A stretch of DNA of 24,000 bases, taken from NCBI RefSeq assembly GCF_023333595.1, contig NZ_JAIQZM010000001.1:505917-529916 (forward strand), given 5' to 3'. The notes beneath the pieces were generated by a model that had not been told where the DNA came from, made no database searches, and worked only from the letters and a program-made list of their open reading frames with translations. This DNA comes from Argonema galeatum A003/A1 (GTDB lineage Bacteria; Cyanobacteriota; Cyanobacteriia; Cyanobacteriales; Aerosakkonemataceae). A program made the position numbers and the translations under genes. Positions 2 to 3,414 of the stretch are shown piece after piece. Numbering within the stretch: the first letter of the stretch is position 1; each line of letters opens with the position of its first letter.

Positions 2-1474
2 CGGGACAAGTTGCTGGAAATTATTACCAAGTTTCTGAAAGTGCGGGATTTTTCCCAACCTCGCGAAAAAGCACAAACCCTGATTAACCAACTGCGCGAA
101 CGCAATTTTATTCTCTGTTATTTGGGTGATGAGTATTACGGTTTTGTTCATCGCACGTTTTTGGAATATTTCTGCGCTTGGGAATTTGTGGATAAGTTTG
201 AAAAGCAGCGCATTTTGACGGAGGAGGAGTTAAAAAACGAGGCGTTTGGGAAACATTGGCAGGATGAATCTTGGCATGAAGTGTTGCGGTTGATTTGCGG
301 GATGCTGGCAGAAAAAGTAGCGGGGGAGATGATTGAGTATTTGATGAGTGAAAAGGATGAATCTGAGTTTATAAATCTAATTTTGGCGGCTGAATGTCTG
401 GTAGAAGTGAGAAATATCTCTACTATTAAATCAACTTCTGCATTACTGCTGGATGCTTTGAAAAATGCTACCAAGAAAGTTCGGAAATGGGAAACTGCTA
501 CAAAAGTTATTCAGGCGATCGCAACAACCTGGAAAAACGACCCGCAAACCCTACCCCTACTCCAATCCTGCGTTCAGTCAGATCCGAATTCGGATGTGCG
601 ACGTGCAGCAGTGTATGCGATCGCCTCTAATTACAAAGAAGACCCGCAAACCCTACCCCTACTCCAATCCTGGGTTCAGTCCGCTCCGAATTTGGTTGTG
701 CGACAAACAGCAGTGGATGCGATCGCCTCCTATTACAAAGAAGACCCGCAAACCCTACCCCTACTCCAATCCTGCGTTCAGTCCGATCTGAATTGGAGTG
801 TGCGACGTGCAGCAGTGGATGCGATCGCCCGATATTACCAAGAAGACCCGCAAACCCTACCCCTACTCCTATCCTGCGTTCAGTCCGATCCGGATTGGAC
901 TGTGCGACAAGCAGCAGTTCAGGCGATCGCCCAATATTACAAAGAAGACCCGCAAACCCTACCCCTACTCCAATCCTGCGTTCAGTCCGATCCGCATTGG
1001 GGTGTGCGACGTGCAGCAGTGAAAGCGATCGTCCTATATTACCAAGAAGACCCGCAAACCCTACCCCTACTCCAATCCTGGGTTCAGTCTGATGCGAATT
1101 CGGATGTGCGATATGCAGCAGTGGATGCGATCGTCCAATATTACCAAGAAGACCCGCAAACCCTACCCCTACTCCAATCCTGCGTTCAGTCCGATGCGAA
1201 TTGGAATGTGCGACGTGCAGCAGTGGATGCGATCGCCGAAAATTGGAACCAAGAACCTGGAATGTTTGAGTTTTTCTACAATTGCGCCATCAACGATCCC
1301 TTTGAGCGTGAGGAAGATTGGCAAACTAACCCCCGACAAACTGCTCTTGAAGCAATTCTAGAACATCATGGCGACAATCCCCGCACGCTGGAGTTGTTGC
1401 GCGACCGATCCGAACATGAGCCCGATGAGAAGTTGCGGGAATTTGCTAAGAAAAAATTGCAGAAAAGAAGTTGA
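2..1474 (+). CDS. STAND (NACHT-type) NTPase, C-terminal part, with a HEAT / PBS-lyase-like repeat array; the 5' end lies outside the window
   Basis: The frame is open from base 2, with no stop before the TTG at 11, so the window edge truncates the ORF. The N-terminal stretch (YYGFVHRTFLEYFCAWEF, WHEVLRLICGML) resembles the helical tail that follows NACHT NTPase domains. Seven tandem 34-aa units follow, consensus DPQTLPLLQSCVQSDxNxxVRRAAVDAIAxYYxE, which is HEAT-like. Confidence 0.8.
   Translation, partial: RDKLLEIITKFLKVRDFSQPREKAQTLINQLRERNFILCYLGDEYYGFVHRTFLEYFCAWEFVDKFEKQRILTEEELKNEAFGKHWQDESWHEVLRLICGMLAEKVAGEMIEYLMSEKDESEFINLILAAECLVEVRNISTIKSTSALLLDALKNATKKVRKWETATKVIQAIATTWKNDPQTLPLLQSCVQSDPNSDVRRAAVYAIASNYKEDPQTLPLLQSWVQSAPNLVVRQTAVDAIASYYKEDPQTLPLLQSCVQSDLNWSVRRAAVDAIARYYQEDPQTLPLLLSCVQSDPDWTVRQAAVQAIAQYYKEDPQTLPLLQSCVQSDPHWGVRRAAVKAIVLYYQEDPQTLPLLQSWVQSDANSDVRYAAVDAIVQYYQEDPQTLPLLQSCVQSDANWNVRRAAVDAIAENWNQEPGMFEFFYNCAINDPFEREEDWQTNPRQTALEAILEHHGDNPRTLELLRDRSEHEPDEKLREFAKKKLQKRS
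539..1252 (+). repeat. Seven tandem copies of a 102-bp (34-codon) intragenic repeat that encodes the HEAT units
   Basis: The string gacccgcaaaccctacccctactccaatcctg recurs at 539, 641, 743 and onward with a 102-nt period. The copies are nearly identical at the nucleotide level, and each contains a HIP1-like gcgatcgc. Confidence 0.9.
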
Positions 1475-2619: not shown

Positions 2620-3033
2620 TTAGGGATACCGTCCTTGCTTAATCAAAATTTTACGTTGAAGTACACGACTGGGAGCATTAAACTTTAGTAATCTTACAGT
2701 AACTTCACCAATCTTAGTTATGCCTTGAATTCGACCGTTATTAAGAGAAAAATGCTCGTTCCAAACTTGACGGCGTGGGTTAAATAAAGGTACAATTTCA
2801 CCGCTAATAGAATCAATAGTAGCAAAATCAGAGCCTTTATAGCGGTTACAAGATAAACATGAAAGAGCTAAATTATCAGCACTGGTTTTACCCCCATGTT
2901 TAAGGGCGATGATATGATCTATCTCATGGCTATAGATAGAAACGTCTTGATGAATCAGGCAGTATTCACAACGTCCGAAAGCCCTTTCAATAACCAACTT
3001 ACGCAGTTCGGCAGAAATTAAATTAGAAGTCAT
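2620..3033 (-). CDS. HNH endonuclease
   Basis: A 137-aa protein with the HNH/zinc motif CEYC...HEIDHIIALKHGGKTSADNLALSCLSCNRYKG. Confidence 0.85.
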   Translation of the reverse strand: MTSNLISAELRKLVIERAFGRCEYCLIHQDVSIYSHEIDHIIALKHGGKTSADNLALSCLSCNRYKGSDFATIDSISGEIVPLFNPRRQVWNEHFSLNNGRIQGITKIGEVTVRLLKFNAPSRVLQRKILIKQGRYP

Positions 3034-3414
3034 TTAGTTAATGCCAGAATAAGCTCGTGCTTTTAGTAAAATCATCAGATGTTCTAGCTGTTCGTAAACA
3101 TCCAATTCTGCTACCTCTGGTGGAGTTAGCGTTGCTTCCCGATTTTTTGACAGCAAAGTTTGCAGCCGTGTTTGAGCTTGGGGAGAAACTTGAAAAGCAA
3201 CAATATCTTCCAGAGTCGGACTTTTGATTAAAAAGTCAATAACTTCTTGATAAACTGGAAAAATATCTGTAAAATTTGGGTTCACTTCTGACTGGATTGG
3301 TTGATAAATTTCAGGATTCTCCAGAACTTGCCAAAGCAGTTCCGGTAATCGCTCTTGCAAAGGTTCTAGGCGTTTAGCAAGTTCATCTGGAATTTGAATA
3401 GTTAGTTCTGCCAT
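3034..3414 (-). CDS. Small hypothetical protein translationally coupled to the HNH endonuclease (possible antitoxin or immunity partner)
   Basis: A 126-aa ORF whose stop codon (3034-3036) directly abuts the HNH start codon (3031-3033). The N-terminus MAELTIQIPDELAKRLE resembles those of cyanobacterial antitoxin-like small proteins. No family could be assigned. Confidence 0.6.
   Translation of the reverse strand: MAELTIQIPDELAKRLEPLQERLPELLWQVLENPEIYQPIQSEVNPNFTDIFPVYQEVIDFLIKSPTLEDIVAFQVSPQAQTRLQTLLSKNREATLTPPEVAELDVYEQLEHLMILLKARAYSGIN

Follow-up and report, generated by a model that had tools for sequence, protein, structure and literature searches.

Bacterial NACHT (bNACHT) proteins of the 'antigen-receptor type' combine NNH N-terminal domains with C-terminal HEAT, TPR or LRR repeats (Kibby et al., bioRxiv 10.1101/2022.07.19.500537), and D[GAS]hDE is the Walker B signature of the NACHT type (Koonin and Aravind 2000; Kibby et al., bioRxiv 10.1101/2022.07.19.500537). 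Several families of Avs and further antiviral STAND NTPases have been shown to bind conserved phage proteins directly (Gao 2022; PMC13581612), and in multicellular bacteria STAND sensors have been diversified via diversity-generating retroelements (Dore et al. 2024, PMC10907252; Kaur 2020, PMC7159879). The fungal NLRs with highly conserved internal repeats include HET-E, HET-D and the NWD WD40 proteins of Podospora, together with ANK, TPR and HEAT classes (Paoletti 2007; Chevanne 2010; Dyrka 2014, PMC4986451); the criterion applied to them is an internal repeat protein identity >85% over at least 100 aa (Dyrka 2014, PMC4986451). As for HEAT-like repeats as binding surfaces, the engineered alphaRep library randomises unit positions 18, 19, 22, 23, 26 and 30, which are the concave binding face in solved complexes (Guellouz 2013, PMC3754942).

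Here we describe the 3' part of a gene of Argonema galeatum A003/A1, which lies at the beginning of an analysed stretch of 24,000 nucleotides (the window; positions are counted from its first base and all features of the gene are on the + strand). We consider it probable that the repeat array of this gene serves as the arm with which a soluble NLR-like STAND protein, a single-gene system composed of NNH2, a NACHT NTPase and a HEAT solenoid, binds its ligand. Note that this architecture is already catalogued (Kibby et al.) and that the evolutionary mode is known from the fungal NLRs. The locus would provide a clean, quantified example of bacterial NLR-like sensors diversifying as fungal NLRs do, by reshuffling of units and selection on one helical face.

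The array is the C-terminal part of an NNH2-NACHT-HEAT protein

ORF extension, translation and Pfam identified positions 2..1474 as the 3' 1.47 kb of an NLR-like gene. The complete CDS encodes 1046 aa (G000:C46:504250-507390; L001:8251-11391), and extension of the ORF placed its first codon 1667 bases before base 1 of the window. Outside the window lie an NNH2 domain (PF22734; aa 26-214, Pfam E 1e-54) and a NACHT P-loop domain (aa 292-446; 50.3 bits against a Pfam cut-off of 26.7, E 3e-13). The Walker A motif (P-loop GxxxxGK[ST]) is present as GDPGSGKS (aa 298-305), invariant across 40 homologues, and Walker B, D375-G-L-D-E379, fits D[GAS]hDE, with D375, G376, D378 and E379 invariant in the family alignment. 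The initial annotation had read the array as the tail of a STAND NTPase, and the NACHT domain found upstream, with its intact Walker A and its DGLDE Walker B, bears this out. In the repeat region, Pfam recognised HEAT_2 (250.5 bits, E 1e-75), HEAT (112.9 bits) and HEAT_PBS (29.2 bits), each exceeding its cut-off. As in the bNACHT proteins, the layout is tripartite, with an N-terminal domain (NNH2), a NACHT module carrying D[GAS]hDE and a C-terminal repeat sensor (HEAT_2). The phage-protective bNACHT members, in contrast, are mostly enterobacterial and have other sensors and enzymatic effectors, whereas here the output domain matches no known activity or fold.

The first segment of the window (2..436, aa 557-701) comprises the winged-helix and helical domains that close the NACHT module, followed by a helical linker running into the repeats. 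This segment contains strongly conserved family columns, including FVHRTFLEYFCAWEF and DESWHEVL, and in the AlphaFold2 (AF2) model it contributes to strands at 594-604 and helices at 607-715. It is followed at 437..538 by a degenerate N-terminal capping HEAT unit of 34 aa, ending in ...ATTWKN, which was recognised from the 102-bp register and the AF2 model (helices 695-715 and 719-732) and is in register with the array. This capping unit has a HIP1 octamer at 515, and those of the repeats occupy the matching unit position. The seven HEAT units are unit 1 (539..640, aa 736-769), unit 2 (641..742, aa 770-803), unit 3 (743..844, aa 804-837), unit 4 (845..946, aa 838-871), unit 5 (947..1048, aa 872-905), unit 6 (1049..1150, aa 906-939) and unit 7 (1151..1252, aa 940-973). 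Units 1-6 are full repeats, and unit 7 departs at its final four residues, which drift towards the conserved C-terminal cap. This cap (1253..1474, including the stop codon) is non-repetitive and has 73 aa, with near-invariant columns in the family consensus at P975, F978, P989, F990, N999, P1000, R1001 and D1029-R1035; AF2 predicts four helices in it (977-987, 1000-1011, 1016-1028 and 1032-1045) with a pLDDT of about 90.

The AF2 model of the protein had a mean pLDDT of 80, and its best PDB neighbours in Foldseek were NLRP3, NAIP/NLRC4 and NLRP14 (E 5e-8 to 4e-6). Whole-chain TM-scores to these structures were low, 0.24-0.33, because the sensors differ. A PDB sequence search with aa 1-720 gave only a marginal match, to NLRC4 (E 0.028). 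The NNH2-NACHT-HEAT protein contains no transmembrane segment, its highest 19-residue hydropathy being 1.36; a membrane anchor was rejected, since no 19-residue window had the hydropathy typical of a transmembrane helix.

Modelled alone from 36 sequences, NNH2 gave a mean AF2 pLDDT of 67, with a core at about residues 61-150 that reached about 90 or more. Foldseek found no PDB neighbour of this fold better than E 0.8, no catalytic signature was detected in the domain, and a literature search for 'NNH2' returned chemistry papers only. The domain could act as an adaptor or, alternatively, as a helical effector activated by proximity. With Avs and the other antiviral STAND NTPases the protein shares the logic of sensor, switch and output in a single polypeptide, as well as a helical-repeat sensor. 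Their sensors, however, recognise conserved folds, with near-identical units not reported, and enzymes such as nucleases and proteases serve as their effectors, whereas the array gene falls under all curated antiphage thresholds: the NCBIfam models EruA and DS8 scored 51.9 and 33.4 bits against cut-offs of 1000 and 790. PADLOC returned only a weak match to mad8 (E 2e-6) and one to PDC-S73 (7e-4).

Seven near-identical units vary along one helical face

Tandem Repeats Finder reported the repeat at 539-1244 (period 102, 6.9 copies, 88% matches, score 1060), and in-frame cutting from 539 gave seven 102-bp units (539-1252), near-identical as originally proposed. Their pairwise DNA identity is 83-93% and their mean pairwise protein identity 74.5%, and 27 of the 102 nucleotide columns per unit are variable. 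Amino-acid differences occur at unit positions 9, 11, 15-19, 22, 23, 26 and 29-34, mainly at 17-19, 22, 26 and 30, and 18 codons are invariant. Alignment of the seven units reproduced the variable positions listed in the initial annotation (11, 15-19, 22, 26 and 29-33); the scaffold that it had called invariant is so overall, apart from minor changes in unit 4 (Q9L) and unit 2 (A23T). When 28 units from five orthologues were considered, the highest entropies were at positions 19, 22, 26, 30, 18 and 17. Across the family, within-protein variability in 72 homologues peaks at 17-19 and 22.

The units have the characteristics of HEAT repeats: tandem helix-turn-helix units, a hydrophobic core and a V-R motif that opens helix B. 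The AF2 model places two helices in each unit at pLDDT >90, with helix B at unit positions 18-31, so each 34-residue unit is predicted to be a helix-turn-helix whose packing core comes from the conserved residues. In helix B, the vectors of variability and hydrophobicity lie 176 degrees apart (helical moment; 57/10000 permutations). This agrees with the earlier suggestion that the variable positions are probably surface-facing and not scattered. Positions 17-19, 22, 26 and 30, which begin helix B and continue along one of its sides, would form a continuous exposed stripe, and this stripe differs both between units and between species. Note that the argument for solvent exposure rests on secondary structure, helical periodicity (helical-moment analysis) and alphaRep homology.

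The top PDB sequence match of the repeats was the alphaRep 6fsq (E 8e-12), with an identical repeat register. The alphaReps (PDB 6fsq and 4JW2; parent HEAT-like family) have the same helix-turn-helix unit, in register around the invariant V20-R21, and the positions randomised in the library coincide with the natural hypervariable positions of the array. Natural hypervariability here falls on the very residues chosen for randomisation in engineered alphaRep binders. The engineered units have 31 residues, however, compared to 34 here; in the array, alanine predominates at position 23, and variation extends to positions 11, 16, 17, 31 and 33.

Unit turnover and selection on the exposed stripe

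The close orthologues, at a syntenic locus, carry 7, 6, 6, 5 and 4 units per array, and their non-repeat part is 85-94% identical. Copy number is thus not fixed in close orthologues, as the initial annotation had anticipated. The flanks of the locus are 97% identical to those of the orthologue G002, from the same genus; in the proteins, identity between the two is 36% at the binding positions and 90% elsewhere. The nearest relative of unit 1 is unit 1 of G002 (95% nt), indicating that the terminal unit is positionally orthologous, and the same holds for unit 7 with respect to the final unit of G002 (94% nt). Unit 3 is closest to unit 5 of its own gene (93% nt), which points to a duplication or conversion within the gene. 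Synonymous divergence is 0.059 among the window units, compared to 0.095-0.27 between species, and this lower value indicates recent homogenisation. As read from these comparisons, the array evolves by gain, loss and duplication or conversion of entire units, a turnover that keeps the unit DNA alike.

We calculated pN and pS at positions fixed in advance from an independent source. At these pre-defined positions pN was 0.46 and pS 0.14 (pN/pS about 3.3), and at the remaining 28 codons pN was 0.115 and pS 0.164 (pN/pS 0.70). None of 20000 random six-codon sets reached the pN of the pre-defined positions, and pS was not raised there. Among the seven window units omega was about 2.8, which, together with the pN and pS values, agrees with the non-synonymous excess expected at the variable positions. 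Between orthologues, the NACHT part, from the P-loop to the array start, had an omega of 0.15-0.26, corresponding to purifying selection. These omega and pN/pS values are Nei-Gojobori counts on 34 recombining codons and, as the product of a counting method, are rough. On these counts, non-synonymous changes build up faster than synonymous ones in the exposed stripe.

It could be argued that the pattern reflects concerted evolution with relaxed constraint, in which unequal crossing-over homogenises the units and the surface drifts, without ligand-driven positive selection or an arms race. Constraint is weaker on the surface of any solenoid; pooling all 28 units gives a whole-unit omega of only about 1.1-1.2, and the value is <1 in the orthologues G018 and G009; and the older, more diverged arrays of other cyanobacteria show pN < pS at the pre-defined positions. 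Neutral drift, however, predicts a pN/pS near 1, and not 3.3 at positions chosen beforehand with pS unraised. Moreover, the excess is largest in the most recently homogenised arrays (e.g. 0.38 vs 0.09 and 0.36 vs 0.04), and codon positions 1 and 2 are as variable as position 3. Among the arrays of other cyanobacteria, pN exceeded pS in 26/43 at the pre-defined positions and in 6/43 at the other codons. We therefore regard drift under relaxed constraint as unlikely, although it deserves some weight.

As occurs with the fungal NLRs, the array combines near-identical tandem repeats, a variable number of units, concerted evolution and positively selected positions on the binding surface. Of the features that define the HET-E/NWD proteins, variation in repeat number among close relatives was found here at the orthologue level, and positive selection at a few binding-surface positions per unit was found by counting. 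The differences are that the mean protein identity of the array is close to but under the 85% threshold, and that the unit is a 34-residue HEAT unit in a bacterium. Repeat exchange between paralogues, a further fungal feature, does not occur here because the unit is present in a single gene of the genome: tblastn with the HEAT region matched only this gene at E 1e-5.

Genomic context and a possible housekeeping role

Downstream of the array gene are a PIN gene and an HNH gene, the latter with a 126-aa partner, so the statement that the array gene lies next to toxin modules is literally true; we found no evidence that the PIN or HNH genes cooperate with the NLR gene. Upstream are histidine-biosynthesis genes, ruvB and Uma2, and no defence island is evident around the locus. 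When all flanking ORFs of 80 homologous loci were clustered, no ORF family occurred in more than 16 of them (PIN in 1/80, HNH in 9/80, the 126-aa partner in 16/80), suggesting a single-gene system. A conserved operon partner was rejected, the recurrence reflecting shared neighbourhood ancestry or passenger genes and not a fixed system. Promoter and terminator scans gave nothing exceeding the shuffled background.

This setting among ordinary chromosomal genes, syntenic within the genus, would also suit a housekeeping scaffold or regulator whose specialised units bind a conserved endogenous partner, such as a phycobilisome-related or signalling protein. NblB and CpcE/F have HEAT repeats of such a type, and NCBIfam gave weak matches to NblB (63.6 bits) and CpcF (50.2 bits). 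Both scores nevertheless fall far short of the respective cut-offs, 300 and 220 bits, and mirror the repeat type only. Specialised units should, moreover, be conserved, but within the genus the binding face is far more divergent than the scaffold and the number of units differs. In one congener (G001) a stop codon interrupts the NACHT domain of the orthologue, which means that at least one lineage can do without the gene. In addition, the fusion to NACHT and the NLR-like overall fold point to a switch-type receptor, and we consider a housekeeping role rather improbable.

Proposed function

The NTPase upstream, the non-scattered variable positions, the non-synonymous excess and the variable copy number support the reading of the protein as a bacterial NLR-like receptor, and from them we infer that the array protein functions as an immune sensor. 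The ligand of the exposed stripe would be a variable non-self protein, with a cyanophage or some other invader as its most likely origin. Once bound, this ligand may free the NACHT module for nucleotide exchange and oligomerisation, as in animal NLRs, bacterial Avs and bNACHT proteins, and oligomerisation would gather the N-terminal NNH2 domains as the output. The practical use of these results is as a guide for experiments, in which the stripe of the seven units (17-19, 22, 26 and 30) is the part to probe for the trigger, together with the NNH2 output module.

A different role, to which we assign little probability, is that of an allorecognition receptor with which a filamentous cyanobacterium would recognise kin or tell self from non-self, a bacterial counterpart of fungal HET-E. 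If this were true, reshuffling of the units would set lineages meeting in mats apart by new specificities, and cells at the contact sites would be killed on activation. In a weaker variant, reshuffling might be frequent enough that populations, and even single filaments, are mosaic for receptor alleles.

Since 102-bp tandem units at 83-93% identity are difficult for short-read assemblers, reads could have been mis-joined and the number or order of the units could be wrong. We consider such an artefact very unlikely: any two units differ by at least 7 of their 102 bases, making reads of 100-150 bases placeable; the reading frame is unbroken through every unit; the array lies within a 691-kb contig; and five independent assemblies share orthologous first and last units. 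Programmed hypermutation, by a diversity-generating retroelement or another targeted mutator that writes the variable codons, can practically be discarded, for although the variation is limited to few codons and retroelement-diversified STAND sensors occur in cyanobacteria, retroelements alter template adenines and the variable columns here (consensus A 9, C 8, G 7, T 3) change in all directions, the genome has no second copy of the unit that could act as template (tblastn), and known retroelement targets are C-type-lectin or FGS folds and not HEAT arrays; the base spectrum and the lacking template led us to exclude a diversity-generating retroelement. With the retroelement-diversified STAND proteins, the NLR-like sensor proposed here does share similar organisms and the hypervariable binding surface of a conflict-system sensor; it differs in that diversity would come from unit shuffling and selected point substitution, and not from adenine-directed retro-mutagenesis.

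Distribution of the family

The family is very large in filamentous cyanobacteria. Among 8000 candidates scored, 2381 database proteins matched at E <=0.001, and a scan of species-representative genomes confirmed at least 539 loci. This strong enrichment, with many paralogues in filamentous cyanobacteria, is a further likeness to the bNACHT proteins, and the Argonema genome carries at least 8 NACHT genes. In other members of the family, internal repeat identity reaches 84-97%.

The array is the tail of a NACHT protein

The window contains a sole long-period tandem array (539-1244; period 102, 6.9 copies, 88% matches with Tandem Repeats Finder), which splits in frame from 539 into seven units of 34 residues, with pairwise DNA identities of 83-93%. 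The open frame continues past the 5' end of the window to an ATG at position 504250 of contig C46, on which the window occupies 505917-529916, and the gene (504250-507390) encodes a protein of 1046 residues. Pfam identified an NNH2 ('NACHT N-terminal helical domain 2') at residues 26-214 (E 1e-54), a NACHT domain at residues 292-446 (50.3 bits vs a cut-off of 26.7) and, in the tail of the protein, HEAT_2 and HEAT (250 and 113 bits). The P-loop reads GDPGSGKS, and the Walker B motif, DGLDE, matches the D[GAS]hDE signature that sets NACHT apart from other STAND clades (Kibby et al.). Thus, the initial annotation, which had taken the array for the tail of a STAND NTPase, was correct: the retrieved upstream sequence encodes a NACHT NTPase domain. 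No transmembrane segment was predicted in the protein.

An AlphaFold2 model made from 40 homologues (mean pLDDT 80, >90 across the repeats) has as its closest PDB neighbours NLRP3, NAIP/NLRC4 and NLRP14, and then HEAT solenoids; the repeats themselves form a solenoid. They are followed by a non-repetitive tail of 73 residues (1253-1471), strongly conserved across the family, with near-invariant NDPFER...NPRQ...DPDE..VR motifs, which fits the 'hybrid' class having a small constant C-terminal module.

The NNH2 domain, a widespread N-terminal module, lies upstream of the window (L001:8251-9117 in the coordinates of this locus, residues 1-289 of the protein). It is all-helical, with a confident core at about residues 61-150 (pLDDT ~90 or more), and a Foldseek search of the PDB gave no structural neighbour for it (best E 0.8). 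Its first 20 residues have moderate hydrophobicity and a conserved pattern; by analogy with HeLo or CC domains they could, speculatively, be a helix set free upon activation.

Variation among units falls on an exposed face

The seven units are nearly identical and vary at few codons, as first described. Differences affect 27 of the 102 nucleotide columns, about equally at codon positions 1, 2 and 3 (10, 9 and 8), and 18 codons show no amino-acid change at all; the changes lie at unit positions 9, 11, 15-19, 22, 23, 26 and 29-34. Nei-Gojobori counts gave pN 0.147 and pS 0.057 (omega ~2.8). When the units were pooled with those of four close orthologues (28 units), entropy was highest at position 19, with 13 different residues, and then at 22, 26, 30, 18 and 17.

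In the model, helix A spans unit positions 4-14 and helix B positions 18-31. The variability vector of helix B points 176 degrees away from its hydrophobic vector, an equally strong moment being reached in 57 of 10000 permutations. The top PDB sequence match was an artificial alphaRep protein (6fsq, E 8e-12), which shares the register around the invariant Val-Arg. The alphaRep library was randomised at positions 18, 19, 22, 23, 26 and 30, which form the concave, target-holding face in crystal complexes (PMC3754942), and we took this list as a pre-defined set, fixed in advance of the pN/pS test. Across the 28 units, pN was 0.46 and pS 0.14 at these positions, compared with 0.115 and 0.164 at the remaining 28 codons. 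None of 20000 random six-codon sets attained this pN and pS was not elevated there, and therefore the excess is not a local mutation hotspot. The array carries an exposed hypervariable stripe, with non-synonymous excess on the helix B face; the initial annotation had thought the variable positions probably surface-facing. Relaxed constraint alone does not predict a threefold excess of pN over pS at a set of positions chosen beforehand; we keep it as an improbable explanation, since the counting method is simple and whole-unit omega falls below 1 in two orthologues.

Unit turnover between species

Between the P-loop and the array, comparison of orthologues gave dS of 0.10-0.27 and omega of 0.15-0.26; the switch is under purifying selection. 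Among the units of the gene, dS is 0.059, below the between-species dS, and dN is 0.164; the units were homogenised recently, and their protein sequences have diverged afterwards. Unit number is not fixed: the gene has seven, and its close orthologues in genomes G002, G018, G009 and G001 have six, six, five and four, respectively. Assembly error in the number or order of units in the array is unlikely, because the units differ from one another and five independent assemblies agree.

The locus is syntenic, with flanks 97% identical to those in G002, a genome of the same genus, whose orthologue is 94% identical outside the array. Positional orthology across species holds for the first and the last unit but not for the internal ones; units 3 and 5 of this gene are mutual closest relatives. 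In the best order-preserving pairing with the G002 units, identity is 36% at binding-face positions vs 90% elsewhere; this divergence at the predicted binding positions argues against a fixed, conserved ligand. That a diversity-generating retroelement wrote the variable codons is rejected, since such elements alter only the adenines of their template whereas the variable columns here have all four bases as consensus (A 9, C 8, G 7 and T 3), and no second unit copy exists anywhere in the genome.

The four-unit orthologue of G001 (L005, on contig C239), from a species of the same genus, has a TAA stop within NACHT, at a conserved glutamate (...GYNP*PLG...), and is probably a pseudogene, unless this is a sequencing error. 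The cyanobacterial HIP1 octamer GCGATCGC occurs at 515, 617, 719, 821, 923 and 1229, and with one C-to-T change at 1025 and 1127. A site is present in the N-cap unit and in every HEAT unit, fixed at codons 27-29, and the two units with the variant have valine, not alanine, at position 29. The genome contains 5642 HIP1 sites vs ~67 expected; density in the array is ~10 times that of the genome.

Distribution in cyanobacteria and in this genome

The NNH2-NACHT-HEAT family is very large and essentially confined to cyanobacteria, with 2381 database proteins at E 0.001 or better among 8000 candidates scored, and at least 539 loci confirmed in the genome scan. Three or more in-register 34-residue units were present in 101 of the 120 best homologues (median internal identity 73%, arrays of up to 18 units). 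For the 72 homologues that have at least five units, within-protein variability was maximal at positions 17-19 and 22. Among 43 arrays from other genera, pN exceeded pS in 26 at the pre-defined positions and in 6 at other codons, and the effect was greatest in the most homogenised arrays.

The genome of A. galeatum, a filamentous cyanobacterium, has 123 tandem arrays (period at least 60 bp, at least 3 copies), including those of a second NACHT-HEAT gene, three TPR-CHAT genes and two STAND-like WD40 genes. The second NACHT-HEAT gene (C22:29617-33054, locus L022; 1146 aa) is built with a 102-bp HEAT unit unlike the present one (5.4 copies, 93% identity), and bears C-terminal NCC-H and NCAB1 domains. 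Many arrays sit in TPR-CHAT, nSTAND1-WD40 and AAA_35-WD40 proteins; examples are at C19:99689-100879, C10:19542-20758, C50:5404-6735, C91:86975-88546, C84:156359-156973 and C38:62377-63004. Since so many near-identical-repeat arrays lie in conflict-type proteins, this genome holds a whole repertoire of them.

Proposed mechanism and relation to known receptors

The NACHT domain, the exposed variable face and the change in unit number support the NLR-like sensor proposed initially, and by analogy its function may be immune. By analogy with what is established for NLR, Avs and bNACHT proteins, a ligand would engage the hypervariable stripe and relieve autoinhibition; the NACHT module would then take NTP and oligomerise, and the gathered N-terminal domains would produce the output.

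NNH-NACHT-HEAT proteins are counted among the 'antigen-receptor type' bacterial NACHT proteins (Kibby et al.), and WD and TPR repeats of high internal conservation occur in bacterial NLRs, for which the fungal mode of diversification has been proposed (Dyrka et al.). The precedent in fungi is well established; unlike it, the units studied here fall slightly below the fungal 85% identity criterion and there is no exchange between paralogues. In the literature searched we found no discussion of HEAT arrays in the NNH2-NACHT-HEAT cyanobacterial family. The gene is a well-supported addition to an already known kind of receptor, and its novelty is modest.

Neighbourhood

The initial annotation rightly mentioned adjoining toxin modules. 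They comprise a PIN-domain gene at 2043-2486 and, at 2620-3033, an HNH gene with a 126-aa partner, the pair spanning 2620-3414 on the minus strand. Of 80 homologous loci, only 1 has the PIN gene nearby, 9 have the HNH gene and 16 its partner. Because no gene family is common to more than 16 of these loci, the NLR-like protein looks like a stand-alone, single-gene system. Co-occurrence with the HNH gene and its partner is above expectation for unrelated genes, yet far from a fixed association, and we read all three genes as passengers or old synteny. In several genera, homologues of the partner are located no more than 3 kb downstream of an NNH2-NACHT-HEAT gene (flanks of loci L029, L033, L037, L049 and others). 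A 326-aa Uma2-family gene on the minus strand, just upstream of the NLR-like gene, contains a 21-bp tandem repeat (L001:7343-7501; 7.6 copies, 95% identity), and a TPR gene contains a 27/54-bp repeat (L001:3704-3958).
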